Below are positions 3,323 to 62,671 of a DNA stretch of 64,000 nucleotides, in pieces. The stretch's first letter is position 1, and the number at the start of each line of letters is the position of its first letter. Below the pieces are notes generated by a model. The model saw only the letters and a program-made list of their open reading frames with translations, was not told the DNA's origin and did not search any database. Origin of the DNA: a bacterium. GTDB taxonomy: Bacteria > Patescibacteriota > Minisyncoccia > Moranbacterales > GWC2-37-73. Both the position numbers and the translations under genes were made by a program. The stretch lies in the NCBI GenBank assembly GCA_003251635.1, contig QKEW01000013.1, positions 2,023 to 66,022 of the forward strand, written 5' to 3'.

Positions 3323-5659
3323 ATGGGCAGGAGAAAAAAAGAAGATATTGAAAAAGAAAAACAACAAGAAGATCGCAAAGCCACAAGTCATGGTGACGTA
3401 AAAAGAGGTGCGGTGGCGGTTTTCCTTTTTGCCTTGTCAATCCTTTTTATTTTGGGGTTTATCGGGCAGGCTGGGTTATTGGGGCAATATTTGGATATTT
3501 TTGCCGGATCGCTTTTTGGTTGGGGAAAATGGCTTTCGCCTCTGGTTTTATCGGCAATCGGAATTGTTTTACTTTTTCGCAAGGAAGCTTTTTTCTATGT
3601 CTCTAAAATAATCGGTCTAGTGATATTATTTTTGAGTTTTTTGGGTTTTTTCCATCTCTATTTTGAGGTGGCTGATTTTTCTCAATTGGTTCACGAGGGA
3701 AGTGGCGGCGGTTATTTGGGTTACGGCATTGCCCTTGTTTTAATTAAAATTACCGGAAGAATTGGAGGAACGGTAATTTTAGCCGCTTTGATGATTTGTG
3801 GTGGGATATTTGCTTTCAATTTTTCCTTAGTGACTTTTTTACGCAAAATCTTTAAAAGAAAAATTAGGGAGATGCAGGAAGATGACGAGGGTGAGGAAGG
3901 TGAAAGTGAGCAAGAGTCTTCCGAAGAGGATGAAGATTTGGGAAATCCGTTAATAGAAAATGATTCCCAAGGTGAAGAGGGTGAAGAAAGTGATGATCAG
4001 GAAACCAAGGAGGATGAAGAGTCTGACTATGAGGTTCCGCCGGTAAAAAAATCAATCATCCAAAAATTATTGGGAGGTAAATCAGCAACTCGTGAAAAGG
4101 CCCAATGGCAATTTCCGCCATTAGATTTATTAGAGTCCTCCACTGACAAAGCCCTGGGTGGTGACACTAAAAAGAATGCCAAAATTATCCAAGATACGCT
4201 TAGACATTTTGGAATTGAGGTTGAAATCGGGGAAATTAAAACGGGACCAACCGTTACTCAATATAGTTTTCGGCCGGCAGTTGGGGTGAAATTAACTCGA
4301 ATAACAGCCCTGAATAATGATCTAGCGCTAGCTTTAGCTGCTCATCCAATCAGAATTGAAGCACCGATTCCAGGAAAATCCTTGATTGGAATCGAGGTGC
4401 CAAATAAATCAATTGCAATGGTAAGGATGCGAGAGCTTTTTGAAACCGCTGATTTTGCCAATCGTTCAACAAACTTATTGCTGGCACTGGGCAAGGACGT
4501 TAGTGGTAATTATGTTTACGCTGATCTGAAAAAAATGCCCCACTTGATGATTGCCGGTTCAACTAATAGTGGAAAAAGCGTTTGTGTTAATTCGATTATT
4601 TTATCCATGATTTATCAGAATTCGCCGGATGACTTGAAGTTAATTTTGGTTGATCCCAAAAGAGTGGAACTTTCTTTGTATAATGGAATTCCTCATCTTC
4701 TTTCGGATGTGATTGTGGAAAACGGAAAGGTTTTAAGTGCTTTGAAATGGGCGATTGGGGAAATGGAGCGACGATATAAAAAACTGCAACTAACTGGATC
4801 TCGGGATATAAATTCCTACAATAAAAAAGCGGAAAATGGCGAAACTGTTTCAGTGACTGATCCGGAAACCAATGAAACAATTGAAGAAGAGATTGAAAAA
4901 ATACCCTACATTGTGATTGTTATTGATGAGCTAGCTGATCTGATGGCGACTCATGGCAAAGAAGTTGAAGGTGCTATCATTAGATTAGCTCAAATGGCCC
5001 GAGCAGTGGGAATTCATTTGATTGTTAGTACTCAAAAGCCGGTCGTGACTGTTATTACCGGTTTGATTAAATCTAATATCCCGACCCGTATCGCTTTCAA
5101 GGTTCCTTCTCTAACTGACTCGCGAACCATGTTGGATAGTGGCGGAGCTGAAAAGCTTTTAGGAAACGGAGACATGCTTTTTCTTTCGGTTTCAGCCACT
5201 GGCCTAAAAAGAATCCAAGGAGTTTTTATTTCCGAAGAGGAAGTTAAGCGGGTAGTTGATTTTATCAGGGATCAAAAAATGATAACCGAAGAAGAATTGG
5301 ATGAAAATATAACCGGTCCGAATAGCGGTGAACAACAAGAATTAAATTTGCCCGAGGATCAAAAATTAGATTTTGGACAAATGGAATTCGAATCATCAGA
5401 TGAAGCTGAAGATGAGCTTTTTGAGGAAGCGAAAAAGATAGTTATTCAGGCTAAAAAAGCTTCAACTTCCTTTCTACAGCGAAGGTTGAGAATTGGTTAT
5501 TCTCGAGCTGCTCGCCTGGTGGATATGTTGGAGGATCGGGGAATTGTTGGTCCGGCGGACGGTGCTAAGGCGCGGGAAGTTTTGATTGACGGGGATGAGA
5601 AAATTAATTATCAAAATGATGCGGATGATCAATTTCAGCGGGATAAGTGGCAAATGTGA
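3323..5659 (+). CDS. ftsK: DNA translocase FtsK/SpoIIIE
   Basis: N-terminal TM helices and an acidic linker. Walker A GSTNSGKS, Walker B VIVIDELADL, C-terminal gamma winged-helix (RIGYSRAARLVDMLE). Confidence 0.9.
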   Translation: MGRRKKEDIEKEKQQEDRKATSHGDVKRGAVAVFLFALSILFILGFIGQAGLLGQYLDIFAGSLFGWGKWLSPLVLSAIGIVLLFRKEAFFYVSKIIGLVILFLSFLGFFHLYFEVADFSQLVHEGSGGGYLGYGIALVLIKITGRIGGTVILAALMICGGIFAFNFSLVTFLRKIFKRKIREMQEDDEGEEGESEQESSEEDEDLGNPLIENDSQGEEGEESDDQETKEDEESDYEVPPVKKSIIQKLLGGKSATREKAQWQFPPLDLLESSTDKALGGDTKKNAKIIQDTLRHFGIEVEIGEIKTGPTVTQYSFRPAVGVKLTRITALNNDLALALAAHPIRIEAPIPGKSLIGIEVPNKSIAMVRMRELFETADFANRSTNLLLALGKDVSGNYVYADLKKMPHLMIAGSTNSGKSVCVNSIILSMIYQNSPDDLKLILVDPKRVELSLYNGIPHLLSDVIVENGKVLSALKWAIGEMERRYKKLQLTGSRDINSYNKKAENGETVSVTDPETNETIEEEIEKIPYIVIVIDELADLMATHGKEVEGAIIRLAQMARAVGIHLIVSTQKPVVTVITGLIKSNIPTRIAFKVPSLTDSRTMLDSGGAEKLLGNGDMLFLSVSATGLKRIQGVFISEEEVKRVVDFIRDQKMITEEELDENITGPNSGEQQELNLPEDQKLDFGQMEFESSDEAEDELFEEAKKIVIQAKKASTSFLQRRLRIGYSRAARLVDMLEDRGIVGPADGAKAREVLIDGDEKINYQNDADDQFQRDKWQM

Positions 5660-5737: not shown

Positions 5738-6751
5738 ATGGTAAAGTTTACGACAAAAAAAATTAAATCGATAACTTTAGGCGAAAAAATGAAAAAATTT
5801 CGCCAAGAGCGTCGTTTGAGCTTGAGCGAAATATCTCGAAATGTTTCAGTTCAAACCAAATATTTGCAATACCTAGAAGAAGGTCAGTATTCTAAATTGC
5901 CGGCCCCAGTTTATGTTAAGGGTTTTTTGCGAAATTATGCTAATTTTGCCAATATGAGTCCGGAAAGTTTGATTAGGCAATATGAGAGAGAGCAAAAAAT
6001 TCAGCAAAATATAAATCAAAAAGAGGAGCCAATTAAAACCAAGAAACCGGAAAAATTTTCCAATTTAGTAATTACCCCAAGAATTATTTTAGTGGCCGTG
6101 GGCATATTTTTAGTTTTTTGGGGATTTTTATATTTATATCGACAAGTTAATAATTTTGTTTCAACTCCTCGTTTGGTTATTAAAAGCCCGGTGGCTGGAG
6201 CTGAAATTGACGGGCGTTTTGTGAGGGTTTCCGGGGTAGCTGAAAAGGATGCTCAGGTTCTGGTTAATGGGCAATCGATTTTAGTTAATGAAAATGGAGA
6301 ATTTAGTGAGGATGTGGGATTGAGAGAGGGTCTAAATGAAATAACTGTAGTGGCTAAAAATAAGTTCGATAAAGAGACTAGTGAAATGGTTTCGGTAAAT
6401 GCTAACTATCAAAATGAACCAACGGATTTTGATGTTGTTGATGGCGGAGAGGGCGGTTCAGGTGAAAACAGTGAGAATTCAACCGAGCCTGGTAAATTTT
6501 CAATGGAACTGAGGGTTGCTGAGGAGCCAACTTGGATTTCAATTGAGGCTGATGGCTCTCTAGTTTATAGTGGAGTTTTGTTGCCTGATTCAGTTCAGAA
6601 TTTTTCAGCTGAAAAGGAGATAAAGGTAACCTCTGGAAAAGGCAATAGTACTTTTATTAAAGTAAATGGAAAATCGGAAGAAGTTTTAAGTGAACAAGCA
6701 GGAGCGGTGCACGATCTAATTTTTACCCCCGATGGACGTGCCCAAATGTAG
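5738..6751 (+). CDS. rodZ: RodZ-like cytoskeleton protein (XRE-type HTH, TM segment, C-terminal DUF4115-like domain). The true start may be the ATG at 5789
   Basis: HTH region LSLSEISRNVSVQTKYLQYLEEG, a single TM helix, and a C-terminal beta-rich domain. Confidence 0.65.
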   Translation: MVKFTTKKIKSITLGEKMKKFRQERRLSLSEISRNVSVQTKYLQYLEEGQYSKLPAPVYVKGFLRNYANFANMSPESLIRQYEREQKIQQNINQKEEPIKTKKPEKFSNLVITPRIILVAVGIFLVFWGFLYLYRQVNNFVSTPRLVIKSPVAGAEIDGRFVRVSGVAEKDAQVLVNGQSILVNENGEFSEDVGLREGLNEITVVAKNKFDKETSEMVSVNANYQNEPTDFDVVDGGEGGSGENSENSTEPGKFSMELRVAEEPTWISIEADGSLVYSGVLLPDSVQNFSAEKEIKVTSGKGNSTFIKVNGKSEEVLSEQAGAVHDLIFTPDGRAQM

Positions 6752-6804
6752 GAAATAATTAAGATAGCACACTGTTTTAGGGGCAATTTGGCCGGTAATT
6801 CGGT

Positions 6805-7830
6805 GTGATTAAAGTTAAAATGGTTAAGAAAAAAAACAATAGTGAGGCAGTTGCTGAAGAAAAGAAAATCGATATCGTGGTGGATGAAATTCGAGAAAAG
6901 TTTGGGGAGGGCATGATTATGAAGTTGGGGGATGTTCGCAAGGTTGATGTGGAATCAGTTCCAACTGGCTCAATATCACTGGATTTAGCCTTGGGAATTG
7001 GCGGAGTTCCTCGGGGTAGAATAATTGAAGTTTATGGGCCGGAATCTTCCGGAAAAACCACCCTGGCTTTGCACATTATTGCTAATGCGCAAAAAAAAGG
7101 TGGAACCTCGGCTTTTGTTGATGCTGAACATGCCCTGGATCCAGAATATGCCAAAAAAATTGGGGTTAAAATTGATGATTTGCTAGTTTCACAGCCTGAC
7201 ACTGGAGAACAGGCCTTGGACATCGTGGAAACGCTGGTGCGTTCCAATGCAGTGGATGTTGTAGTGGTTGATTCAGTGGCAGCCTTGGTTCCGAAAGCTG
7301 AAATTGAAGGAGAGATGGGCGATCAGCATGTTGGACGCCAAGCTCGACTGATGTCGCAGGCTTTGAGAAAATTAACGGCTATTACTTCACGCTCGAATGT
7401 TATTGTGATTTTTATTAACCAGATTCGTATGAAGATTGGTGTAATGTTTGGTAATCCGGAAACAACTAGTGGAGGACAAGCTTTGAAATTTTATTCCTCA
7501 GTGCGTTTGGAAGTTCGAAAATCAGCTCAAATTAAAAAAGGCGAAGATGTGGTGGGTAATCGAGTGAAAGTTAAAGTGGTGAAGAATAAAGTTGCTCCGC
7601 CTTTCAAAACAGCGGAATTTGATATTATGTACAACGAAGGAATTTCCCTAACCGGGGATCTGATTGATAGCGGTTTGAAGTATGAGGTGATTAAAAAGTC
7701 TGGAAATTCTTATTCTTATGAGGATGTGAAATTGGGAGTTGGTCGAGAAAATGCTAAGCAGTTTCTTAAGGATGATCCAAAAATCAGCCAAAAGATTTTC
7801 AAAGAAATTATTACTAAAACTAAAGCATAG
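6805..7830 (+). CDS. recA: recombinase RecA
   Basis: Walker [10 protein letters not shown], and loop L1/L2 regions conserved. Confidence 0.95.
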
Positions 7831-25371: not shown

Positions 25372-25446
<75 letters not shown>

Positions 25447-25541
25447 AAGCTAACCTACACCTTATAATCTGCAACTAGCAACATTCGTTGTCAGTGGTTA
25501 ATTGTAAGCTGTTAGTCAAGTTGCCAGGGTAGCTCAGCTTG

Positions 25542-25649
25542 CCCCGTTGCACTTTATGGGCCAGAGTAGCTCAGTTGGTTAGAGCACAGGACTCATAAGC
25601 CTGGGGTCGTGAGTTCGAATCTCACCTCTGGTACTAAAGTGCAACGGGG
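25542..25649. repeat. Perfect 15-bp inverted repeats (ccccgttgcacttta / taaagtgcaacgggg) that flank the inner tRNA exactly. TTG direct repeats lie at both outer junctions
   Basis: Exact reverse-complement arms at 25542-25556 and 25635-25649. Confidence 0.85.
25560..25633 (+). tRNA. tRNA with CAU anticodon (elongator Met, or Ile2 if lysidinylated)
   Basis: Cloverleaf with acceptor gccagag/ctctggt, D-loop agttggtta, anticodon loop CUCAUAA, T-loop ttcgaat. Confidence 0.85.
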
Positions 25650-25809
25650 TTGAATTAGAGCACAGGACTTCCGCCAAAGGCGGACAGGCATAAGCCTGGG
25701 GTCGTGAGTTCGAATCTCACTTCTGGCACTAAAGTGCAATGGTATTGATTTGGATTTTGGAATTGGTCTGTTGAAAAAAAGCTTTTTAAAAAAAATAAGT
25801 TGAATATTT

Positions 25810-25886
25810 GGGGGCGTAGCTCAGTTGGTTAGAGCGTCTGCCTGTCACGCAGAAGGTCGAGGGTTCGAGCCCCTTCGTCCCCGCCA
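25810..25886 (+). tRNA. tRNA-Asp (GUC) with encoded CCA
   Basis: Anticodon loop cuGUCac, and close similarity to bacterial tRNA-Asp. Confidence 0.9.
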
Positions 25887-26047: not shown

Positions 26048-26422
26048 ATGGCTCCAAAGCTTTATTTTTGGATTTTGCGTTTCGCGTTAATTCTAGGGTT
26101 GGGGACTTGGATTTGGGTTTTGTTTAATCTTGATCCAGAAAATTCCGGATTAATTGTTTGGATCTTGTTTTATGGAGCATTTTTTGTTTTTTTGGGCGGT
26201 TTTTTTATGAGTTTTTTTACCTGGCTGAATCGGGATTTGCAAGGTGAGCAATATTCAAAAGAATCTTTGGTCTATGGTGCGCGTCAAGGTTTATTGCTGT
26301 CTTTTTTGATTGTTGCCTTGCTTTTTTTTCAACAAAAAGAAATTTTACTTTGGTGGGATGGGCTTTTGCTGGTAGCTGGGATTTTCTTGGTTGAATTATA
26401 TTTTCTTTCACGCAGAAAATAG
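26048..26422 (+). CDS. hypothetical small membrane protein (four TM segments)
   Basis: Hydrophobic ORF immediately upstream of gyrB. Confidence 0.5.
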   Translation: MAPKLYFWILRFALILGLGTWIWVLFNLDPENSGLIVWILFYGAFFVFLGGFFMSFFTWLNRDLQGEQYSKESLVYGARQGLLLSFLIVALLFFQQKEILLWWDGLLLVAGIFLVELYFLSRRK

Positions 26423-30267: not shown

Positions 30268-30714
30268 GGATTTACGTTTGAAAAAAGTGATGCTTTCGGG
30301 CAGTGAAAATGAGTGCTAAAGTTTATTTTCAATCATTTTGAAAAACACTAGAAAAAAACAAAAAAAATCAAGCGGGTGAAATTGGGGTCATTTTGACTCT
30401 TAGTTGTCTCCGCTGAAAAAGCGGTTTTTTTGTTGCTTTAAAAAATGGTGCGAAAACAATTTCCAAAAAGCGTTTCGTATGTAATACGAACTTTGTAGAA
30501 TATGTTTCCGCATCAATCACTGAACTTTCAGTGATCGGTCACTTGAAAATTAAATAGAGTCTTTTTATGCGCGTGTAATTTTTCTCTTCTGTTTGGCGGA
30601 AAAAGAGAGGGTTGGGCGCAAAAGCATAATAAGTCTGAAATAGGTCAAAAAACAACACCGAAGAAAATTTGCAGTTAATCGTGATTGTTAACTGCTAACC
30701 GTTAAAAAATGAAA

Positions 30715-33772
<3,058 letters not shown>

Positions 33773-33859
33773 TTCTAATTTTTACGGTTAGTGGTTAAGA
33801 ATTACGATTTTTTGGAGGTTTTGTTTTTTGTTACTATTTCTTTTGTGTTAGATTGCATT

Positions 33860-33970
33860 GTCTTGGTGGCTTTTGCGGAGGGGGTACACCTCTTTCCATC
33901 TCGAACAGAGCAGTTAAGCCCTTTAGCGCCGATGGTACCTGTTTTCAGGGAGAGTAGGCCGTCGCCAAGA
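33860..33970 (+). rRNA. rrf: 5S ribosomal RNA
   Basis: Helix I tcttggtggc/gtcgccaaga. Conserved CCGAAC..AGTTAAGC..GCGCCGATGGTA..GAGAGTAGG segments. Confidence 0.85.
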
Positions 33971-42844: not shown

Positions 42845-43252
42845 ATGAAAATTTCAACCGCTGATTGGGCGCAAGTTCTATATGAAACAGTCAAAGGCAG
42901 ATCACAGGAAGAGATCGGTGAGCCGCTTTCTAATTTCGTGAAAGCTTTGGCGCGTCAAAAACAGTTGGGGAAAATTGAGAGAATTTTGGAAAAATTTTCG
43001 CAAATTTGGAATCGAGAAAACAGTGCCGTGGACTGTGAAGTGATCAGTGCTCAGAAATTGGAAGACAAAATGATTGGTAAAATTCGAAATTTTGTGGCGG
43101 AAAAATATCAAGTGGAAACAGTTAATGTGAAAAACCGAATTGAAGAGTCAATTGGCGGCGGAGTGAAAATTCAAATTGGCGATGAGATGTTGGACGAAAG
43201 TGTGAGCGGGAGATTGGGAAGATTACGGAAGGAATTGACGTACGGAGTGTAG
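42845..43252 (+). CDS. atpH: F0F1 ATP synthase subunit delta (short, 135 aa)
   Basis: Position between atpF and atpA. OSCP-like C-terminal region. Confidence 0.7.
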   Translation: MKISTADWAQVLYETVKGRSQEEIGEPLSNFVKALARQKQLGKIERILEKFSQIWNRENSAVDCEVISAQKLEDKMIGKIRNFVAEKYQVETVNVKNRIEESIGGGVKIQIGDEMLDESVSGRLGRLRKELTYGV

Positions 43253-43360
43253 CGTAGAAAGTGAAACTTAAGATTGGAAATATTTATAATTTAATAGAAT
43301 TAATTCAAAAAGCTGAGGCTGAGAAGCTAAGAGGCTATAAGCTAGAAGCTAAACAATTTT

Positions 43361-44860
43361 ATGGACAAAAGTTACATCATTGAACAATTGAAATCACAAA
43401 TTGAAGGATTTAAGAGCGCTGCTAAGACTGAGAAAGTTGGCAAGGTTTTGGAAGTGGGTGACGGCGTAGCCAAAGTCAGCGGGCTTTCCGAGGTGATGTC
43501 CAGCGAGTTGGTGGAATTTGAATCCGGCGTGGTTGGAGTGGCGCTGAACTTGGAAGCGGATGAAGTCGGAGTGATGATAATGGGTGACTACACTAAGATT
43601 AAAGAAGGTGAAACAGTCAAATCCAGCGGCAAGATTTTGTCGATCCCGGTTTCTGACAAAATGATTGGGCGAGTTATTGATCCATTGGGTCAAACAATTG
43701 ATGGTAAGGAAGAAATCAAGGCAGAAAAATTTTATCCGGTGGAAAAAATCGCGCCAGGCGTGATGACTCGAAAATCAGTTCATCAGCCGGTGCAAACCGG
43801 AATCAAAGCCATTGATGCTATGATCCCGATTGGTCGCGGACAACGCGAATTGATTATTGGTGATCGTCAGACCGGAAAAACGGCCATTGCTATCGACACC
43901 ATTATTAATCAAAAAGGTCAAAATATGAAATGTGTCTATGTAGCCATTGGACAAAAGGAAAGTAAGATCGCTCGCATTGTGGCTGAATTGGAAAAAGCCG
44001 GAGCTATGGAATATACAACTGTAGTGGTGGCTGGAGCCAGTGATCCAGCCGCCCTTTCCTTTATCGCACCTTACAGTGGTTGCGCCTTGGCGGAATATTT
44101 CATGGACAAAGGTGAAGATGTTTTGGTGGTTTATGATGATCTCTCTCGCCATGCCTGGGCTTACCGTCAAGTGTCTTTGATTTTGCGTCGTCCACCGGGA
44201 CGTGAAGCTTATCCGGGAGATGTTTTTTATTTGCACTCACGTCTTTTGGAAAGAAGCGCCAAGCTCAATGAAGATTTTGGCGGGGGATCAATCACGGCGT
44301 TGCCGATTATTGAAACTCAAGCTGGAGATGTTTCAGCCTACATTCCAACAAACGTGATTTCAATCACGGATGGTCAAATTTATTTGGAAAGTGATTTGTT
44401 CTACAAAGGTGTGCGACCAGCGGTAAATGTTGGTTTGTCAGTTTCTCGAGTGGGTGGTAGTGCACAGATCAAGGCTATGAAAAAAGTAGCTGGAAAGTTG
44501 CGTTTGGATTTGGCGCAGTTTCGAGAATTGGAAGCTTTCGCACAATTCGGCAGCGACTTGGATGAAAAAACCCGAGCCCAGATTGAACGTGGAAAACGTA
44601 CGGTAGAAATTCTCAAGCAAGGACAATATGAGCCGATGGCAGTGGAAAATCAGGTAGCAATCATTTACGCTTTGACTAATGGATATTTGGATGATGTGGA
44701 AGTTGAGAAGATTAAGGCCTGGGAAATTGATTTTCATAAATTTCTCAAATCTCAAGGTAAGAATGTGATCGAAATTATTCGAGAGAAGAGGGAATTGTCT
44801 GACGAAGTTGTTGAGGCTTTGGAAAAAGGAATAAAGGAATTTAAGGAAATATATCAGTAA
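43361..44860 (+). CDS. atpA: F0F1 ATP synthase subunit alpha
   Basis: Walker [12 protein letters not shown], and alpha-specific conserved blocks. Confidence 0.95.
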
Positions 44861-44861
44861 T

Positions 44862-44950
44862 AACTCACAACTCACAACTCACAACTCACAACTGACAACG
44901 GACAATTAGCAACTAACAACAAAAAACTAACAACTGGCAACAGATAACCA
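44862..44950. repeat. Tandem octamer microsatellite (AACTCACA x4, decaying into AACTGACA/ACGGACAA/TTAGCAAC/TAACAACA units) in the atpA-atpG spacer. It is followed by a TAAGTT-type repeat
   Basis: Direct reading of four perfect units, then degenerate ones. Confidence 0.8.
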
Positions 44951-45023
44951 AAAACCAACAGAATTTTGCACAAGACGGGAATCTGGTTGTAAGTTATAAG
45001 TCGTAAGTTTTAAGTTAAATTAT

Positions 45024-47427
<2,404 letters not shown>

Positions 47428-49796: not shown

Positions 49797-50204
49797 ATGA
49801 GCAAAGAAAAAATTTTAAATTGGTTAAAGGTGGTAAATTTGGCAATAATTGTTTTAATGTTGCCAATAATGCTTTTAATGTTGCCTTATTCAATTGGATC
49901 ATTTCAGTCAGAAAGCATTTTTAACCCGCTTCTTTTTGAGGTAATCGGTTACTTGGCGGCGGCAGTTTTTGGATTTTTGGCTTTGAAGAAAAGAATATTT
50001 TTAATTTTCAGTTTGATTGGCTGGGCATTGCTTGTAACCGGCAATTATGTTGATTCAAAAAAAGCTCAAGAAGACAATAATCAAGCTTGTCTCGAGCTTC
50101 GTCAAGATAAAAATTGCTTGGAAAAAGAGGGCGGCACGATGGATTGTCGAACTGGTGAACATGCCGGTATTTATTCGAGGATTTGCACTGGCTTGGGGAA
50201 ATAA
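49797..50204 (+). CDS. hypothetical membrane protein
   Basis: Three TM helices. No motif. Confidence 0.4.
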   Translation: MSKEKILNWLKVVNLAIIVLMLPIMLLMLPYSIGSFQSESIFNPLLFEVIGYLAAAVFGFLALKKRIFLIFSLIGWALLVTGNYVDSKKAQEDNNQACLELRQDKNCLEKEGGTMDCRTGEHAGIYSRICTGLGK

Positions 50205-50225
50205 TTTGCAAATAATATTTTTCTA

Positions 50226-51275
50226 TTAGTCTTCTAAAAATTTTTCCACCAGTTTCTCGGCTTCGTTTGGATCCGGAATCCAAATTAAGTCGGGATTTTT
50301 TTTGAGCCAAGTCATTTGGCGTTTGGCGTAGTGGATGATGTCGAAAAAAAGTTTTTCTTGCATTTTGCTTTCGGAAATTTTATCTTGTAAAAATTCAGCC
50401 AAGCGGCGATATTCCAGACCGAAAGATTCCAAACGCTGCCAAGAAATTCCGCTTTGATGTAAATTTTGCACCTCTTGAAGCATGCCCTGCTCAAATCTTT
50501 CGTCCAGGCGTTTTTGAATTTTTTCTCGCAAGACTTCTTTTGGGACATCCAAAGCTAGCTGCAAAAATTCATAGCTTTTAGTTTTTAGCTTATTGTTTTC
50601 AGGTCGGGGAACTTTTCCCAGTTTTTGGCAGATTTCCAAAGCGCGAATCAGGCGGACCTTGTTTTTTGAATCAATGGCAGCGGCTCGCTGCGGGTCGATT
50701 TTTTGCAATTGGGCAAAAAGTTGCCGGGTGTTTTTTCTATCTAAATTTTTGCGTAAATCCAAATCCGGTTTGACTTGAGGAAAATCCAAATTGTCGGTGA
50801 TGGCTTGAATCCAAAAACCAGTGCCGCCACAAATGATCGGGAGTTTTTTTCTTTGCAAAATTTCCGGGATTTTTTCCAGGGCGTATTTTTTGAAATCTGC
50901 CACGTTGAAATCCTGATCAGGATTGATGATATCAATTCCATGGTGCACAATGCCGGCAGATAGATAGCTGCCATTTTTTAGCTTATAGCTTTTAGCTTCT
51001 AGCTCATTAGACTTAGGGGTGGATTCATGCTCCACGCTCCATGCTTCACGTTTCATGCTATGTGCCCCACGCTCCACGCTACTTGAATCACGCTCGACTT
51101 TACCAGTGCCCAAATCCATTCCACGATAAATCTGGCGGCTGTCCGCCGAGATGATTTCACCATCAAATTTTTGGGCCAATTGAATGGCCAAAGTTGATTT
51201 GCCGGAAGCTGTCGGTCCGGCAATGACTAGGATTTTAGGGAGTTTGTTCATGGTTTTATTAAAGCATAAAAACAT
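50226..51275 (-). CDS. miaA: tRNA dimethylallyltransferase MiaA, carrying a roughly 40-aa in-frame insertion after the P-loop region
   Basis: GPTASGKST P-loop and DSRQIYRGMDLGTGK. The conserved HHGIDII block resumes after the inserted segment. Confidence 0.9.
   Translation of the reverse strand: MFLCFNKTMNKLPKILVIAGPTASGKSTLAIQLAQKFDGEIISADSRQIYRGMDLGTGKVERDSSSVERGAHSMKREAWSVEHESTPKSNELEAKSYKLKNGSYLSAGIVHHGIDIINPDQDFNVADFKKYALEKIPEILQRKKLPIICGGTGFWIQAITDNLDFPQVKPDLDLRKNLDRKNTRQLFAQLQKIDPQRAAAIDSKNKVRLIRALEICQKLGKVPRPENNKLKTKSYEFLQLALDVPKEVLREKIQKRLDERFEQGMLQEVQNLHQSGISWQRLESFGLEYRRLAEFLQDKISESKMQEKLFFDIIHYAKRQMTWLKKNPDLIWIPDPNEAEKLVEKFLED
50958..51101. repeat. GC-rich interspersed repeat (CGCTCCACG family) inserted in-frame within miaA, preceded by TAGCTT-type short tandem repeats
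   Basis: catgctccacgctccatgc...tgccccacgctccacgct shares long identical words with the copies at 52435-52485 and 62262-62388. Confidence 0.6.
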
Positions 51276-51352
51276 TAAAATATGAAAACATCAAAGCATT
51301 AAAACACGAGAATAATAAAACATTAAAGCATGAAAGAGGGAATTTTCAAAGC

Positions 51353-51381
51353 TTGACAACCAGGCTGATTTATGCTAGAAT
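51353..51381 (+). promoter_or_regulatory. sigma70-like promoter TTGACA-17-TAGAAT upstream of the small membrane-protein gene
   Basis: Exact -35 and a good -10. About 70 nt upstream of the GGAGGT RBS. Confidence 0.45.
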
Positions 51382-51450
51382 TAAAAGTCATTATAATAAT
51401 GGCAATAACTTAAAAAAAGAATATTTTTCTAATTTTTTCTGGAGGTGTTT

Positions 51451-51747
51451 ATGGAACTGGGCTTGTTGAGCATTAACTTGTATTTAAGCGGAGTTTTTTC
51501 TTTAGGATTCTATTTGATGTTTTTATCAGTGATATCGGCTGGACTCATTGATAAAAAAGTCCATAGGCGTATGGTGATTGTGATTGTGGTTATAGCCGTG
51601 GTTTTTATTGCGATCACTTTTACAATTTTGTTGTTCCTTTTGTTTAAAAAGGAGTCTGGAATCGTAATTGTGATTTTATTGATTGGGGGTCTGATTAGCG
51701 TTTTTCATAAAAAAATCCTTTCAAACCCCAAACCCCAGTCCGAGTGA
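51451..51747 (+). CDS. small hydrophobic protein (three TM helices)
   Basis: ATG preceded by GGAGGT. The 3' end overlaps the miaB stop region convergently. Confidence 0.45.
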   Translation: MELGLLSINLYLSGVFSLGFYLMFLSVISAGLIDKKVHRRMVIVIVVIAVVFIAITFTILLFLLFKKESGIVIVILLIGGLISVFHKKILSNPKPQSE

Positions 51748-53080
51748 TTTGGGCTGGGAGGATTTGACCAACCAATGATTCAATTGAATCAGGTTGGTCA
51801 AGTTGAATACGAACATTTTTCAAAGTGCGGGTTTTGCCAAAGCAAAGCCCGCCTTTTTCTTTTTCTATCAAAACTTCCACGGTTTGATGGAGATATTTTT
51901 GATTATTTTCTCGAGCGGTTTTTTTGAGGATTTCATTGAGAAATTTTTCACGCCGAACTTTTTCCGGCTTGGAAACGTCATCAGTCATTTTCCAAGCGGC
52001 GGTTAGGGGACGCGGAGAATATTGTCCGAAAAAAACCATATCAAATCCAACCTGCTCCATGATTTGGGCAGATTGTTGAAACTGCTGCTCGCTCTCGCCG
52101 GGAAAACCGACGATGATGTCAGTAGAAATGGAAAAAAGTTTACCAGGCTTGTTTTGGGCAAAGCCTTTTTTTATTTTCTCAATCAGCTTGAGATAATCCT
52201 CAGCTTTATATTTGCGATTCATGCGCCGCAAAATTTCGTCGTCGCCGGCTTGCAGCGGCAAATGAACATTTTCGCAAACTTTCGGTAGCGACGTGATGGC
52301 TTGGATAGTTTCATCGCTCATGTCTTTGGGGTGAGAGGAAAGGAAGTAGATCCAAAAATCACCCTCCAAATCATTGACCATTTTGAGCAGCTGGGCAAAA
52401 TTAACCATTGGCTCAAGTTTTGCATTCCGAGCCATGCTTTCCGCATTTTGTGTTTCGCGCTCCACGTTTCGCGCTCCACGATAGGAATTTACATTTTGTC
52501 CCAAAAGCACGATGCTTTTGTAACCTTCGGAAACGAGGGATTTTATTTCGTCTAAAATTTCCTGAGCGGGACGGGAAATTTCACGGCCACGGGCATAGGG
52601 AACTGAGCAATAGGCGCAAAAATTGTTGCAGCCGGTCATGATGGGGACCAGGGCTTGAAATTTATTTTGGCGCCGAGGTTGAATGGAAAGATAATTTTCA
52701 ATTTTTTTCGAATCCGTGCAAGAAAGCTGAAAATTGTTTTGCAAGAATTTTTCAATCTCTTGGGGAAAGTTTTTGATCTCGGTGAAGAGGTCGGCGTTTT
52801 TGAGACGGCGATGAATGTCTTGGCGATTAGCCAAACAACCGGTGATGATGATTTTGATTTGAGGATTTTTCTTTTTGAGATTGCGAGCCAAACCAAAAAC
52901 TCGATCCTCAGCCATTTGACGGACCGAGCAAGTATTGATGATAGCCAAATCAGCTTCCAAATATTTTTCCGATCGACGAAAGCCTTTTTCTTGCAAAAAG
53001 CAGTTAATGCGCTCGCTGTCGGAAATGTTCATCTGGCAGCCGAAGGTTTTGATGAAATAGTTTTTAGATCTTGGGTTCAC
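51695..53080 (-). CDS. miaB: tRNA methylthiotransferase MiaB (radical SAM MTTase)
   Basis: UPF0004 N-terminal Cys triad. Radical SAM motif CNNFCAYCSVP, and a TRAM C-terminus. Confidence 0.85.
   Translation of the reverse strand: MNPRSKNYFIKTFGCQMNISDSERINCFLQEKGFRRSEKYLEADLAIINTCSVRQMAEDRVFGLARNLKKKNPQIKIIITGCLANRQDIHRRLKNADLFTEIKNFPQEIEKFLQNNFQLSCTDSKKIENYLSIQPRRQNKFQALVPIMTGCNNFCAYCSVPYARGREISRPAQEILDEIKSLVSEGYKSIVLLGQNVNSYRGARNVERETQNAESMARNAKLEPMVNFAQLLKMVNDLEGDFWIYFLSSHPKDMSDETIQAITSLPKVCENVHLPLQAGDDEILRRMNRKYKAEDYLKLIEKIKKGFAQNKPGKLFSISTDIIVGFPGESEQQFQQSAQIMEQVGFDMVFFGQYSPRPLTAAWKMTDDVSKPEKVRREKFLNEILKKTARENNQKYLHQTVEVLIEKEKGGLCFGKTRTLKNVRIQLDQPDSIESLVGQILPAQITRTGVWGLKGFFYEKR
52435..52485. 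repeat. short copy of the CGCTCCACG repeat family inside miaB
   Basis: tttcgcgctccacgtttcgcgctccacg. Produces about 10 extra residues (ERETQNAESMA) between conserved blocks. Confidence 0.55.
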
Positions 53081-53133
53081 AGGTTTTCGGGATTTAAAAA
53101 AGATTGAAATTTTTTTGTATTTTTTTGTTTGGA

Positions 53134-54873
53134 TTATTTTTTCTCTTTAATCTCTTTTTTAACTTTCTCCAAGAAATCTGTCAGTCCCAAAGTTTCTGGT
53201 TTTTCTTGGCCACGAACATTGACGGCGACAGTTTCGTCTTTTTCTTCTTTTTCTCCAACTACCAAAAGGTAGGGAACTTTTTGTATTTTGCTTTCGCGAA
53301 TGCGTTTGCCTAGAGACTCATCCGAGTCATTGATTTCGGTGCGAATATTGGCTTTGAGTAAATTTTTGGCGACTTTTTGGGCGTAGTCCTTGAATTTTTC
53401 GCTGACCGGTAAAACAGTGACTTGAATCGGTGAGAGCCAAAGGGGAAAGTTGCCGGCAAAATGTTCGGTTAAAATCCCAATGAATCTTTCAAATGATCCA
53501 AAGATGGCGGCGTGAATCATCACAGGCGTAGCTTTTTTTCCATCCGAGTCGACATATTCCAATTGAAATCTTTGTGGCAATTGGAAGTCCAATTGAATGG
53601 TAGCCAGTTGCCAAGAGCGTCCCAGAGCGTCATTTATGTTGATGTCGATTTTTGGTCCATAGAAAGCACCATCTTTTTCTTTGAGATCAAAAGAAATTTT
53701 TTCTTTTTGGAGGGCTTGGCGTAAATCTTCTTCAGCCTTGTCCCAAGTTTCAATTTTGCCTAAAAATTCTTCCGGTCGGGTTGAGAGGAAAAATTTCGGT
53801 TCAATGTCAAAAACTTGGTAATATTCCTTAACCATTTTTAGAAGTTGAACGATTTCATTTTCTACTTGATTTTCACTGGCGAAAATATGGGCGTCATCTT
53901 GAGTAATGGCTCGAACTCGAAAAAGTCCATTGAGCTCACCGGATTTTTCATTGCGAAACACGCGGCCAATTTCACTAAAACGAATGGGCAATTCTTTGTA
54001 GGAGTGATGACGAGCTTGATAAATCTTGATGTTGAAAGGGCAATCCATTGGTTTGAGACAATAAACGTCATTTTCAACTCCAAAAGAAAACATGTCATCT
54101 TTGTAGTGGTCCCAGTGCCCGGAAGTTTTCCAAAGAATATTTTTGGCCAATTGGGGAGTTTGGATTTCTTGACTGCCATATTTTTGGCGCAGATTTTTGC
54201 CGAATTTTTCCAGTTCATTCCAAATGACCATGCCTTTTGGATGCCAAAAGACACTACCAGGAGCTTCACTGTGAAAAGAGAAGAGATCCAGCTCTTTGCC
54301 AATTTTTTTGTGGTCTCTTTTTTGGGCTTCTTCCAATTGCCCCAGATAATTTTTCAGTTCCTTTTTATTTTCAAAAGCCACTCCATAAATTCTTTGAAGT
54401 TGAGCCTTATCGGCGTCGCCTTTCCAATAGGCGCCGGAAATTTTGGTTAGCTTAATGGCTTCGGCGTTAATTTCACCGGTTGATTCCAAATGAGGACCAG
54501 CACATAGGTCAATAAAATCACCGCATCTGTAAACTGAAACATGGGAATTATTTTCTTGGGCCAGATCTTCAATGATTTCAACTTTATAGGGCTGATCACT
54601 TTGAGAAAATTTTTCGCGAGCTTCCTGAATCGAAATTTCAGCTTTTTCGAATTCGAGATTTTGCTGGATGATTTTTTTCATTTCATTTTCCAGAAGTTCC
54701 AAATCTTCAGGAATCAAGGTGCGAGGCAATTGGAAGTCGTAGTAGAAGCCGTTTTCAATGGCTGGTCCCATGCCGAATTTGGCTTCGGGAAACATTTTCA
54801 AAACGGCCGCGGCCAGGACATGGGCAGTTGAATGGCGGATAATTTCAATTTGACTGGTTTGTTTTTTGTTCAT
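53134..54873 (-). CDS. thrS: threonyl-tRNA synthetase, lacking the N-terminal TGS domain
   Basis: Starts at the second (editing-like) domain HxxxH motif (HSTAHVLAAAV). Class II motifs 1-3 and an anticodon-binding domain are present. Confidence 0.9.
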   Translation of the reverse strand: MNKKQTSQIEIIRHSTAHVLAAAVLKMFPEAKFGMGPAIENGFYYDFQLPRTLIPEDLELLENEMKKIIQQNLEFEKAEISIQEAREKFSQSDQPYKVEIIEDLAQENNSHVSVYRCGDFIDLCAGPHLESTGEINAEAIKLTKISGAYWKGDADKAQLQRIYGVAFENKKELKNYLGQLEEAQKRDHKKIGKELDLFSFHSEAPGSVFWHPKGMVIWNELEKFGKNLRQKYGSQEIQTPQLAKNILWKTSGHWDHYKDDMFSFGVENDVYCLKPMDCPFNIKIYQARHHSYKELPIRFSEIGRVFRNEKSGELNGLFRVRAITQDDAHIFASENQVENEIVQLLKMVKEYYQVFDIEPKFFLSTRPEEFLGKIETWDKAEEDLRQALQKEKISFDLKEKDGAFYGPKIDININDALGRSWQLATIQLDFQLPQRFQLEYVDSDGKKATPVMIHAAIFGSFERFIGILTEHFAGNFPLWLSPIQVTVLPVSEKFKDYAQKVAKNLLKANIRTEINDSDESLGKRIRESKIQKVPYLLVVGEKEEKDETVAVNVRGQEKPETLGLTDFLEKVKKEIKEKK

Positions 54874-58005: not shown

Positions 58006-61000
58006 TTAAACCACTTCCACCTCTCCATGCAAAACTAAGGTTTGAAGTTGGTCGAGGATTTCTTGGGTGTGATTTATGAGAAAAGGAGTTTGCAGCTTGG
58101 TTTGATTGTGTTTGAGGAAAACTTGAGTGGCACCTTTTTCGCATTTTTCCAAAAATTTTCCCAATTTTTGAATCACATCTGGCGTCGCATTGTGGGGCAG
58201 GGTGACAATCAGTTTCTGCTGGTCATTTTTTTGGGAGTCTTTGTTGTTTTTTGTTGATGAATTTGAATCTTGTGAATTGCTATTGTCAGGATTATTTTTA
58301 TCATCCCCGTCTTTTTTTTCACTGCTGTGATAGGCTTTTTGAGTCAGGCGAATGCGCATGAATTCATCAACTTCGTGGCGATTGAGTTCTTTAGCTTCGT
58401 CGACGATTAATTTGAAAACTCCGTCTTTATCGGAAAGTCGGCCTTCAGCTATGATCATTCTTTCACTTTCCCAGATGCTTTGAGTTTTTTCCAAAATTTT
58501 CGGAAAAACTAAAAGCTCAATTCGATTTTTGGTATCTTCCAGCATTACAAACAGCATGGTGTCATGGCGTTTGGTTAATATTTTTTGAACTTTCTGAATG
58601 ACTCCGCCAACCTTGATTTTTTGTCCGACCTTTTCTTTGGTGATTTGTGAAATAGCCTCGCCGGATTCATTGAGAAAAGCTTGAAATTCAGCCACGGGAT
58701 GATCGGAAACATAAAGTCCGAGCAATTCTTTTTCCCATTGCAATTTTTCTTTTTTACTAGCCGGCTCACATTCGTTTAGTAAAATTGTTGGAGCTTCTAG
58801 TTCTTGAGCACCAAAAAGGCTATTTTGATTGGAGTTTTGATTTTTTTGAATATTCTTAGAGAAGGCAATGATACTTTCGATATTTTCCAGGATTTGTTGG
58901 CGTTCACCCAAATTGTCCAAAGCGCCCACTTTAGCCAGGGCTTCGATTGATTTTTTGTTGAGATCTTTGGTTTGAACTCGTTCAAGTAAATCTGCCAAAG
59001 AAGAGAATTTTCCCTGGGCTTTTCTTTCTTTGACGATTTCAGCGGCGACCACGTGCCCGACATTCTTGATGGCATTGAGTCCAAAGCGAATTCTAGTTTT
59101 TTTGCCCTCTTGGTCGATGACGGCAAAATCTTCAAAACTTTCATTGACATCCGGGGCCAAAACTTCAATGCCCATGTCGCGAGTTTCATCCACTTCAATG
59201 GCGATGCGATCAATGTTGTCCTGGTCTGAAGTCAAAAGGGCAGCCATAAAAGCTTCTGGGTAGTGAGCTTTGAGATAGGCGGTTTGATATCCGATCAGGG
59301 CATAGCAGGCGGCGTGCGAGCGATTGAAACCGTAACCGGCAAACGGCTCAATGAAAGAGAAAACTTTTTCACCGATTTCGCGACTGATGCCATTTTTTTC
59401 GCAGCCGGCAATAAATTTGATTTTCTGTTCTTGAATCAGATCCAGAATTTTTTTACCCATGGCTTTGCGAAGGACATCGGCTTCACCCATGGAAAAGCCA
59501 GCCAAAGCGCGAGCGATCTGCATGACTTGTTCTTGATAGATGGCTACGCCGTAGGTATTTTTCAAAACCGGTTCCAATTTTGGATGAACATAGGTGACTT
59601 TTTTGGTGCCGTGCTTGTTGGCAATAAATTCCGGAATCCAATCCATCGGTCCTGGACGGTAAAGTGCTACCATGGCGATGATGTCCTCCAGGACAGTGGG
59701 TTTGAGAAGTTTCAAATAGCGTTTCATGCCGGAACTTTCAAATTGGAACACTCCGGTGGTGTGGCCTTCCTGGAAAAGACGATAAGTCTGCGCGTCGTCA
59801 ATTGGAATTTCATCAATATCAATTTCTATTCCTTTGGTTTTACGAATGATATTGATGGCATTTTGGATGATGGTTAGATTTTTTAAACCCAAAAAGTCCA
59901 TTTTGAGCAGCCCAATTTTTTCCACGTAGCTGGTTTTGGTAGAAGACGAATATTGGGTCACGGTGCCTTCCCGCGCACCAGCAATGTTTTGCAGTGGGGT
60001 ATATTCAACCACGGGCTTTTTCGTAATAACGACTCCACAGGCATGCATGCCAGCGTGACGACAAACTCCTTCTAGGCGCTGAGCATTGTCGATTAATTTT
60101 TTAGCATCCTCGCCAGAATTATAGTGGGACTTAAACTCTGGAACTTCTTCCAAGGCCTCTTTGATGGATGTGAACATGGGAATCATTTTGGAGGTTTTGT
60201 CACAAAAATCATAGGGAAGTCCCAAGGCGCGACCGGTATCGCGGATGGCGGCGCGGGCAGCCATGGTTCCAAAAGTGATGATTTGGGCTACGTGATCATC
60301 GCCATATTTGCGTCTGACATAGGCTAGCACGTCGTCACGTCGATTATCAGCAAAATCCATATCGACATCGGGCATGGATACGCGTTCCGGATTAAGAAAT
60401 CTTTCAAAAAGCAGATCATATTTGATTGGGTCAACATTGGTGATTCCGATCAAATAGGAAACAAAGCTGCCAGCTGCGCTACCACGTCCCGGACCCACCA
60501 CCACCCCATTGCTTTTGGCCCAATTGACAAAATCTTGCACAATCAAAAAGTAGGAAGGGTAGCCGGTTTTTTCAATAATATCCAATTCATAGTTCATTCT
60601 TTCCAGATGTTTTTCACTGTGCTCTCCTTGATATCTTCTTTGTAAACCTTCCTCAGTTAATTTACGCAGGTAGGTTACATCAGTGAATCCTTGAGGTACT
60701 TCAAAGTGGGGCAACTGGGTTTCACCCAGCTTCAATTCAAAATTGCAAAGGTCAACAACTTTTTGAGTATTTTCCAAAACTTCCGGGTGATCCGGAAAAC
60801 CAGCTAGAACCTCTTCAGGGGAACGCAAAGACAGATCGAAATCCATCAAATTCATGCGATCGGTTTCTTGAACTTTGCGGTTAGTTTGAACGCAAAGTAA
60901 AATGTCTTGAGCGGTGGCGTCTTGTTTGTTGACATAGTGCACGTCGCAAGTTGCGACCACGGGAACATCCAATTCTTGGCTTAATTTGAAAATCCCATCA

Positions 61001-61906: not shown

Positions 61907-62671
61907 ATGAACTTGTCAAATGATTTTTTGAAAGCAGAAAAAGAGCTGAAAAATAAAGGGTTTGGGCGAATTATTGGAGTGGACGAAGCCGGTCGGGGTC
62001 CGCTCTGCGGTCCGGTGGTAGCGGCGGCAGTTTGTTTGCGCACCGATTTGGATGATTTGAGCGAGGAATTTTTGATGGACGAAAATTGGAATTTGGTGCG
62101 TGATTCCAAAAAACTTAGCGAAAAACAACGTGAAAAAGTGTTTAGTTTTATTTGGGAAAATTTTCAGGTGGGGATCGGTATTTGTGATCACCAAACTATT
62201 GATCGCATCAATATTTTGGAAGCCAGTTTTCTGGCTATGAAAAAGGCGATAAATGATTTGGAGCGCAAAACGCGTAACACGGAACGTGAAACGCATAGTC
62301 CGAAAGGGAAAGTTAATTGTTTGAATGATTCGCATTGCATCTCAAATTCATTCGCTCCACGCTCCACGCTCCATGCCCCACGCTTAATAATTTTAGTTGA
62401 TGGTAACAAAAAAATTCCCAATTTTTCCGCCGAGCAATTGGCGATTGTGGGCGGAGACAAAAAGATTAAATCGATTTCAGCCGCTTCAATTGTGGCCAAA
62501 GTAACGCGGGATCGGATGATGGAGGAGTTTGATCAAAAATATCCCGGCTATGGTTTTGCCAAGCACAAGGGTTATGGTACCAAAGCTCATCTGGAAGCCC
62601 TGGAAAAATTTGGGCCTTGTGAAATTCATCGCCAATCTTTTGGTCCGGTCAAAAAGTGGAAAAGGGCTTGA
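61907..62671 (+). CDS. rnhB: ribonuclease HII, carrying a roughly 35-aa in-frame insertion
   Basis: GVDEAGRGPLCGPVVAAAV active-site start and DSKKLS. The conserved LVDGN block resumes after the inserted segment. Confidence 0.9.
   Translation: MNLSNDFLKAEKELKNKGFGRIIGVDEAGRGPLCGPVVAAAVCLRTDLDDLSEEFLMDENWNLVRDSKKLSEKQREKVFSFIWENFQVGIGICDHQTIDRINILEASFLAMKKAINDLERKTRNTERETHSPKGKVNCLNDSHCISNSFAPRSTLHAPRLIILVDGNKKIPNFSAEQLAIVGGDKKIKSISAASIVAKVTRDRMMEEFDQKYPGYGFAKHKGYGTKAHLEALEKFGPCEIHRQSFGPVKKWKRA
62262..62388. repeat. GC-rich palindromic-type interspersed repeat (CGCTCCACG family) inserted in-frame in rnhB
   Basis: Left arm aaacgcgtaacacggaacgtgaaacgcatag and right arm cgctccacgctccacgctccatgccccacgctt. 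The words are shared with the miaA and miaB copies. Confidence 0.6.

Follow-up and report, generated by a model that had tools for sequence, protein, structure and literature searches.

Heptanucleotide tandem arrays read in frame in a predicted disordered loop of MiaA in a Candidatus Moranbacteria genome

We analysed a 64,000-nucleotide (nt) stretch of the Candidatus Moranbacteria contig QKEW01000013.1 (assembly GCA_003251635.1, positions 2,023 to 66,022 of the forward strand), the whole of which is called the window here, with regard to a long in-frame insert in its miaA gene, which encodes tRNA dimethylallyltransferase. The insert carried two tandem arrays, each with units of 7 nt; members of one unit family also formed arrays in miaB and rnhB of the same window, and relatives had arrays at the same sites. 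The explanation that we favour, with a probability of about 0.7, is that these are heptanucleotide simple-sequence arrays tolerated in a permissive, predicted disordered surface loop of MiaA, where they would turn over by slippage and homogenisation and would rarely be copied from one locus to another. The features concerned were the following.

50226–51251, minus strand: miaA, an intact open reading frame (ORF) of 341 amino acids that hosts arrays
50958–51101, minus strand: in-frame insert of miaA, 48 codons (V51–A98, 144 bp), giving a loop of 51 residues against a canonical 10
51026–51081, plus strand: about eight units of the heptamer CAYGCTY (Tandem Repeats Finder, period 7; pattern matches; unit scan; codon view), antisense reading SVERGAHSMKREAWSVEH
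50976–51005, plus strand: about four units of the heptamer TAGCTTN (Tandem Repeats Finder; six-frame stop counts), antisense reading ELEAKSYKLK
50572–50599, plus strand: second TAGCTTT-type heptamer array in miaA (Tandem Repeats Finder), in a variable linker, peptide KLKTKSY
52449–52483, plus strand: CAYGYTY-family array in miaB (51695–53032, minus strand), antisense reading RGARNVERET
62351–62385, plus strand: CGCTCCA array of 4.6 units in rnhB (61907–62671, plus strand; Tandem Repeats Finder), sense reading FAPRSTLHAPRL
62260–62298, plus strand: inverted partner array in rnhB, with the units GGAGCGC, AAAACGC, GTAACAC, GGAACGT and GAAACGC, read as ERKTRNTERETH

The miaA product belonged to the IPPT/MiaA family, as it had an IPP transferase domain (Pfam IPPT, PF01715, E = 3.6e-63) and the N-terminal P-loop GPTASGKS, and could be aligned with the solved MiaA 2qgn (E = 5e-49) in two blocks, query residues 7–56 and 101–327, which flanked the insert and left about 44 residues between them unaligned. 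The database entry P0001 was this same protein (100% identical), the named best homologues were those of Moranbacteria, and no Pfam families besides IPPT and P-loop families were found in the product. The stretch from GxGK to HH measured exactly 10 residues in 52 of 62 Patescibacteria MiaA loci and 51 residues in the window, where the minus-strand ORF across the insert read ...GTGKVERDSSSVERGAHSMKREAWSVEHESTPKSNELEAKSYKLKNGSYLSAGIVHHGIDI and the insert encoded the peptide EAWSVEHESTPK. A preliminary description of this DNA had put the normal length at about 10 residues, in agreement with these loci, and had counted about 49 intervening residues; the extra loop is real and the peptide quoted for it is the product of the ORF, but the net excess is about 41–44 residues rather than 49 set against 10. 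Among the 120 best-scoring homologues, the length of the loop varied between 10 and 54 residues, and its low-complexity fillings were many and unrelated. In an AlphaFold2 model computed with a 29-sequence alignment (mean pLDDT, the predicted local distance difference test, 84; pTM, the predicted template modelling score, 0.80), a MiaA-like fold was confident outside the insert, and residues 58–90 (window 50982–51080, which correspond to the arrays) had a pLDDT below 50 and zero secondary structure. The arrays are predicted from this model to encode a disordered loop without an evident catalytic role. An intein or intron was rejected, because a 48-residue insert is too short for an intein and Rfam, at gathering thresholds, gave only rRNA and tRNA genes in the window.

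The units at 51026–51081 were CATGCTC, CACGCTC, CATGCTT, CACGTTT, CATGCTA, TGTGCCC, CACGCTC and CACGCTA, and Tandem Repeats Finder described positions 51029–51080 as 7.4 copies of GCTCCAC at period 7 with 66% matches, that is, as a decayed array. This array lies in a housekeeping gene, and a phase-variable contingency locus would be expected to have a near-perfect repeat that switches the reading frame. A spacer of 20 nt separated it from the other array of the insert, whose units were TTAGCTT, ATAGCTT, TTAGCTT and CTAGCTC (50979–51004: period 7, TAGCTTA, 3.7 copies, 89% matches). The preliminary description had distinguished a repeat family from accompanying TAGCTT-type microsatellites; both were present, but both proved to be 7-nt tandem arrays. 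The array at 50572–50599 added no length relative to 2qgn, the miaB array was part of about 18 extra residues after LLGQNVNSY, and the rnhB array at 62351–62385 was the 3' arm of an inverted pair. A CAYGCTY-type array was found on the plus strand both in rnhB, a plus-strand gene, and in miaA, a minus-strand gene; it is therefore antisense in miaA, as had been noticed, and with the CAYGYTY family lying in three genes and in both coding orientations, the claim that either orientation is tolerated was borne out.

The likeness among the copies in the window exceeded chance. The pattern CACGCTCCACGCTC with up to three mismatches gave 10 matches where 1.47 were expected (0 of 100 shuffles reached 10), all of them in miaA, miaB and rnhB, and at least three consecutive CAYGYTY units occurred in four regions against 0.25 expected. 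Local alignment of the miaA insert with the rnhB insert gave a score of 37, compared with 15.0 ± 2.3 (maximum 23) for shuffles, so the proposal that miaA and rnhB hold one repeat family stands, with miaB as a further host, and the copies are not alike merely to the degree that shuffled sequences are. The pattern TAGCTTNTAGCTT with up to two mismatches matched 14 times against 5.5 expected (0 of 100 shuffles); the matches included 43332–43351 and 50572–50598, in accordance with the related TAGCTT arrays that had been reported in the atpH–atpA spacer and at the second miaA site, and the window held three TAGCTTN arrays. A self-similarity scan of the window detected six arrays at lag 7, and with a stricter filter there were three at lag 7 and one at lag 4, lags 5, 6 and 8–12 being empty. 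The arrays thus had the properties of heptanucleotide simple sequence repeats (SSRs): 7-nt units arranged head to tail, dispersed arrays of the same unit beyond chance, and period 7 in preference to neighbouring periods. A match of the arm motif at 26073–26088 was taken as chance, no array being present around it.

Read from the minus strand, a 7-nt array crosses all three codon phases every 21 nt; since 7 is not a multiple of 3, all three phases are read in turn and a 7-residue-periodic peptide results, which in the miaA insert was VERGAHS / MKREAWS / VEHES. The earlier view that the insert is DNA-level repeat material and not a conserved peptide agreed with this. Peptides of this kind, WSVERGA and WSMEHGA, did recur in the MiaA proteins of other Moranbacteria, but the DNA that encodes them consisted of near-perfect arrays of 7 nt running across the codon phase, and what is conserved is therefore the DNA repeat and not the peptide. 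The repeat had further been called ORF-neutral, which was true of the consensus CACGCTC, stop-free in six frames, but not of the actual copies, which carried stops in unused frames. The miaA copy had stops in two of the three coding-strand frames, and the TAGCTT array at 50976–51005 was open only in the frame used: in codon view, its sole in-phase TAN unit was TAT, and the other three units had TAA or TAG out of phase. Intergenic arrays had stops in five or all six frames. The stops in unused frames imply that selection acts only on the frame in use, and purifying selection on the essential ORF is sufficient to explain the open frame. Asking whether copies are stop-free in all occupied frames more often than chance, as had been suggested, proved uninformative, because about 35% of composition-weighted heptamers (50% unweighted) are stop-free in six frames.

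The relatives L202 and L204 were syntenic with the window (rnhB–dnaE–thrS–miaB–miaA), and their MiaA proteins showed 55% and 51% identity, respectively, with that of the window by BLASTP (59–62% over aligned positions). At MiaA site 1, these two and the relatives L237, L238 and L239 had exactly four units between GTT and TTT.

MiaA site 1, L202: (CGTGGAG)x4, a perfect 28-nt repeat
MiaA site 1, L237: CGTGGAG x3, then CATGGAG
MiaA site 1, L238: CATGGTG, CATGGAG, TATGGAG, CATGGAG
MiaA site 1, L239: CCCGGAA, CATGGAA, CATGGAA, CATGGAG
MiaA site 1, L204: CCTGGAA, TATGGAG, CATGAAG, CGTGAGG

The identity between units was 0.79–1.0 within an array in four of the five relatives and 0.73 between lineages, the latter value being the same whether the unit position matched or differed. 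In this small sample of sequences, such a pattern reads as the concerted-evolution signature of a tandem repeat. The MiaA proteins of the five relatives were 62–85% identical with one another, and a perfect 28-nt repeat in proteins of that divergence cannot be a passively conserved peptide. Compared with four units and 18 residues in the relatives, the window miaA had about eight units plus the second array and 51 residues, and it stands out solely by expansion. The second MiaA site (GKVP...FLQIG) was occupied by an AAGCTAA-type array in the window, a perfect (CATGGAG)x3 in L204, an AGTAACT-type array in L202 and a period-7/8 array in L239. MiaB site 2 carried the CAYGYTY family in three genomes, reading RGARNVERET in the window, HGIWNAECET in L202 and HGTWSMKHGA in L204; unrelated inserts were found there in L005 and L024. 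In RnhB, the first arm was common to the window (RNTERETH) and L202 (RNVERETH), and the second arm differed, being (CGCTCCA)n in the window and (AAATCYA)n in L202. The arrays at the MiaA, MiaB and RnhB sites are old and not recent arrivals, and they appear to be still turning over.

The preference for period 7 extended beyond these relatives. Across the 1.06 Mb of 80 Patescibacteria MiaA loci, lag 7 had 47 arrays, lag 14 had 22 and every other lag (3–6 and 8–13) had 0–11, and the unit sequences varied from genome to genome. Array-bearing ORFs were assigned by Pfam to ThrRS, TrmD, MiaA and RNase HII, and array-bearing MiaB and DnaE were identified by tblastn to window proteins or by the Pfam families of called genes. 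Period-7 arrays with other unit sequences lay inside the MiaA ORFs of L010 and L013, and an N-terminal site of MiaB (HNLR-array-KIVLTGC) contained five different heptamer units in five lineages (L003, L004, L013, L039 and L204). Among the short repeats of this Moranbacteria lineage, and of Parcubacteria in general, 7-nt tandem arrays predominate; they lie in spacers up to start codons and in exposed loops of housekeeping enzymes. The unit CGCTCCA was itself widespread: (CGCTCCA)x3 was found in more than 120 metagenome contigs with GC contents of 0.39–0.74, many of the matches lying within long open frames of high-GC DNA. In viral contigs, CGCTCCA gave 18 stretches and two permuted control heptamers of equal composition gave 11 and 3; the idea of CGCTCCA as a special cosmopolitan unit was rejected, as these controls show that heptamer arrays of any unit are common, and the metagenome matches are probably of mostly independent origins.

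A few observations were made beside these. At the HNLR/KIVLTGC site (about 52800), the MiaB of the window had only KKKNPQIK. The C-terminal region of DnaE in the window (58192–58335, minus strand) was of low complexity, rich in Asn, Ser, Asp and Lys, and not 7-periodic, and the matching region of L202 DnaE contained a (CAACAAT)n heptamer array at 4319–4379. Peptides of the types LRFGQNDK, RYARNDK and VILSE..SKD were present in L005 MiaB (about 6157–7683) and in the MiaA loops of three proteins, P0003, P0017 and P0067; such inserts in Moranbacteria proteins seem to derive from another dispersed DNA repeat that is read in frame. The metagenome (CGCTCCA)n arrays (L082–L161) had 3–12 units and read as HAPRSTL or ERGAWSV repeats.

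The mechanism that we propose for the arrays is as follows. Arrays would gain and lose units by replication slippage, units would be homogenised within an array by concerted evolution, and point mutations would cause decay; occasionally, another locus would receive a copy of an array, or an inverted duplicate would form. In an essential gene, the survivors would be those length changes that keep the frame and those unit variants that have no in-frame stop. Several points weigh against this explanation. Both pairs of independent assemblies (the window and L001; L202 and L203) were identical, with zero polymorphism in unit number between them. The length of four units was constant at MiaA site 1 in five lineages, which could reflect structural selection and not neutrality, and the nearest relative had only about 57% MiaA identity, so that an empty site or a recent event is not visible. 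Half of the arrays in the Patescibacteria loci (35 of 70) lay inside ORFs of at least 150 amino acids, but this 50% share uses ORF length as a proxy for genes, and several of these arrays sit in the first 25 codons or so and are thus probably leaders. A string of 15–17 nt, AACGTGAAACGCATA[AC], which represents a specific order of unit variants, was common to rnhB of the window, rnhB of L202 and the rplK leader of L202. Slippage alone leaves the same unit and the same order of unit variants at unrelated loci unexplained, and the string suggests occasional copying between loci.

Arrays also occupied spacers, and three such features were identified in the window.

43305–43352, plus strand: AAGCTNN arrays (TAGCTT in reverse orientation), in the spacer between the ORFs 42845–43252 and 43361–44860
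44861–45020, plus strand: heptamer-built spacer between the ORFs 43361–44860 (atpA) and 45024–45980 (atpG), both named by sequence
51258–51335, plus strand: 8-nt array AAAGCATN of about nine units (Tandem Repeats Finder, period 8), between miaA and the divergent gene

The AAGCTNN arrays ended 9 nt upstream of the next ATG; the ORF before them is atpH according to the preliminary description and the one after them atpA by its sequence. The spacer at 44861–45020 consisted almost entirely of heptamer arrays, about 14 units of ACTCACA/ACTAACA followed by about four GTTGTAA-type units up to the downstream ATG, and the ORF 45024–45980 corresponded to the ATP-synt (PF00231) gene of L001, on whose Pfam families the names atpG and atpD also rest. 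In the window, the arrays preceding atpA, atpG and miaA stopped 0–10 nt short of the ATG, as did those preceding rplK and nusG in L202, five cases in all, and GGAGG was not visible in the array stretches upstream of these five genes. The rplK and nusG leaders of L202 (19662–19785 and 20325–20405) contained inverted heptamer-array pairs ending at the start codon. The reverse complement of the unit at 51258–51335 (NATGYTTT) resembled CAYGYTY. Adjoining this 8-nt array on the plus strand, a near-consensus promoter-like site was observed at 51353–51381 (TTGACA, 17 nt, TG-TAGAAT), upstream of an ORF of 100 amino acids (51445–51747) with a predicted hydrophobic product, which lies between miaB and miaA on the opposite strand.

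The preliminary description had regarded the repeat as a mobile one at the DNA level. A non-autonomous element akin to the Rickettsia palindromic elements or to miniature inverted-repeat transposable elements, in which a hairpin of two inverted heptamer arrays would insert in frame into genes and leaders, is in our estimation unlikely. It would fit the spread of the CAYGYTY family over three genes in both orientations and the two-armed hairpin copies in three places, rnhB of the window and the L202 leaders of rplK and nusG; the rnhB arm at 62260–62298 and the arm in the rplK leader were identical at 27 of 31 positions (score 42 against 14.7 ± 2.3), and the array-filled spacers of rplK and nusG measured 117 and 77 nt in L202, whereas their counterparts in L204 measured 27 and 30 nt and were without arrays. 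However, inspection of the flanks of the miaA, rnhB and miaB copies revealed no conserved ends, terminal inverted repeats or target duplications, and nothing common beyond decayed units, and an inverted-repeat scan of 50200–53200 gave no partner arm for the miaB copy. The inter-arm spacer was not conserved between rnhB and the two-armed copy of L202 (score 13 against a shuffle mean of 12.8), and a profile search recovered array segments only, so that the likeness between copies was confined to the arrays and a discrete mobile element was not supported. The miaA copy was one-armed and showed no folding (z = +0.70 and -0.04), and a palindromic element was rejected for it because neither strand of the insert folds. 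In relatives with about 57–62% MiaA identity, the MiaA, MiaB and RnhB copies were at the same sites and differed by homogenisation of units, not by presence or absence, and the variation of unit sequences among Patescibacteria genomes is better accounted for by a process than by an element. Between dnaE and thrS, the hypothetical genes had no Pfam family on record and nothing suggesting a transposase, the whole window not having been searched for transposases. Folding itself depended on the strand: the inverted pairs of rnhB (z = -3.38 vs -0.12) and of the L202 rplK leader (z = -2.75 vs -0.10) folded as antisense RNA only, and that of the L202 nusG leader folded on both strands, better as antisense (z = -4.14 vs -2.80). 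In each pair, the G-rich arm had A where the consensus unit has G, so that the sense RNA contains A.C mismatches where the antisense RNA has G.U pairs, and AT-biased decay would explain this without selection for structure. Rickettsia palindromic elements, described by Ogata et al. in 2000, are reportedly discrete, about 100–150 bp long and palindromic, with a conserved consensus; the arrays resemble them as repetitive DNA in frame in housekeeping genes of a reduced genome, in surface segments and in either orientation, and differ from them in that only the 7-nt arrays are common to the copies, the ends are undefined, the spacer is not conserved and the miaA copy is unfolded.

Somewhat less probable still, we think, is an active, lineage-wide making and spreading of 7-nt arrays in Parcubacteria, by template switching or by a hairpin-recognising enzyme acting on inverted pairs, with the same units serving before start codons as translation signals that replace Shine-Dalgarno sequences and in protein loops as a steady source of disorder in minimal proteomes. 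Adaptation at the protein level, in which the loop would be a lineage-specific functional extension of MiaA, for instance for contact with a partner or with tRNA, and the repeats incidental to it, appears highly doubtful. Among the 120 best-scoring homologues, the extended-loop proteins kept [FY]-[ILF]-S-E-G-I before HH, predicted as a strand by AlphaFold2, and a recurrent 18-residue form, G-x-W-x-x-E-x-x-x-F-I-S-E, had a conserved Trp and constant length; the middle of the loop, on the other hand, was hypervariable in length and composition (10–54 residues) and predicted to be disordered, a perfect phase-crossing 7-nt periodicity such as the (CGTGGAG)x4 of L202 is not maintainable by selection on a peptide, and the same units lay also in MiaB, RnhB and non-coding leaders. 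We likewise give little credence to regulation at the RNA level, by which the intragenic array would pair with the complementary 8-nt array upstream, or bind a repeat-specific protein, and so control translation. The start codon lies within the predicted pairing between 51258–51335 and the insert (z = -2.2, with 1 of 100 shuffles as good), but the pairing was not conserved, as the relatives lacked such a complementary array before miaA. A search of 51200–51480 gave no minus-strand promoter, so that the 8-nt array may lie outside the miaA transcript, and the strong promoter-like site on the plus strand (TTGACA-17-TAGAAT) next to the array also counts against a function. The miaA insert alone was without structure, and the rnhB and rplK hairpins were significant only antisense to the gene, that of nusG being so on both strands with the antisense better. 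We treat the predicted pairing as incidental. An artefact of assembly or sequencing in repetitive DNA is barely conceivable: an independent Logan assembly (SRR7216773, L001) ended exactly at a heptamer array, at window position 44864, but over 16,388 nt, the miaA and miaB arrays among them, the window was matched at 100% identity by a separately made Logan assembly, the miaA, miaB and rnhB ORFs were all intact and in frame, and arrays of the same family occurred at the same sites in several unrelated samples.

Heptanucleotide SSRs tolerated in loops, which we prefer to these alternatives, have known counterparts. The short tandemly repeated repetitive (STRR) heptamers of cyanobacteria are said to have been described by Mazel et al. 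in 1990; the arrays work like STRR sequences but were not assigned to them, as the host is Candidatus Moranbacteria and the units are CAYGCTY and TAGCTTN. Heptanucleotides are the most abundant class of long SSRs in most prokaryotic genomes examined, and polymerase slippage has been proposed for them (Mrazek 2007, as summarised in PMC4679880). The arrays resemble such repeats in their many dispersed tandem arrays of the same unit, the favoured period of 7, the location near starts and ends of ORFs and the slippage proposed, and differ in that they sit in frame within essential enzymes of a reduced genome of the Candidate Phyla Radiation (CPR), where they recur at the same loop positions. Inside genes, units that are multiples of three would be expected (PMC4679880). 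The heptameric repeats of Xanthomonas and Nostoc (GGGAATC and GGGGA(C/T)T) lie near ORF ends with a preference for four units, and are over-represented in non-coding and under-represented in coding DNA (PMC4692102). Their preference for four units is paralleled by the exactly four units at MiaA site 1 in five lineages, but the unit sequences are other ones and G-quadruplex-type units are absent here. The direct repeats TAACTGA, which occur in marine Beggiatoaceae and in some Cyanobacteria and Bacteroidetes (MacGregor 2015, PMC4679880), stand in runs of two to a few units immediately before start codons, at which Shine-Dalgarno sequences are rare; a minority of copies lie in ORFs, with the 7-residue-periodic peptide LSVISYQ from the 'reverse' strand. 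They have stops in all forward frames, the ORF copies are mostly at protein ends or in hypothetical proteins, and possible mobility was raised by the author, with no evident mechanism (PMC4679880). Heptamer arrays upstream of start codons, and some in ORFs as a 7-residue-periodic peptide, are common to both cases; unlike the TAACTGA copies, those described here are internal to conserved catalytic domains, persist at their sites across lineages and have different units. A further likeness is with Borg elements, in which fast-evolving tandem repeats within ORFs likewise give rise to new disordered segments. The in-gene repeats of Borgs reportedly have units divisible in length by three and are near perfect, whereas the frame rotates through the 7-nt unit seen here and most of the present arrays are decayed. 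That the tandem repeats of Borgs create intrinsically disordered regions is stated in PMC9879509. We found no literature on CPR heptamer repeats or on these repeat strings, subscription journals lying outside the coverage of the search. What is different here is the presence of arrays whose unit is not a multiple of three in frame in essential enzymes, at recurrent loop sites and across a CPR clade.

Heptamer arrays of this kind would provide raw material for in-frame loops in essential CPR enzymes (MiaA, MiaB, RNase HII, ThrRS, TrmD and DnaE) and would account at the DNA level for part of the unusual low-complexity insertions and of the variation in length among CPR proteins. For annotators and phylogeneticists, they call for caution, as repeat-derived segments should not be aligned as homologous residues. 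They also represent a natural system in which selection on the reading frame filters repeats of non-multiple-of-three length. The arrays explain at least one assembly break, that at window 44864, and they may be among the reasons why contigs break in assemblies of CPR genomes.

The window also contained a 23S rRNA gene at 30710–33778 of 3069 nt, about 140 nt more than the 2925-position Rfam model, inside which no period-7 array was flagged. A 5S gene followed it at 33862–33970, with no 16S gene found in the window by Rfam. A tRNA cluster on the plus strand at 25372–25886 comprised two tRNA-Met genes and one tRNA-Asp gene.

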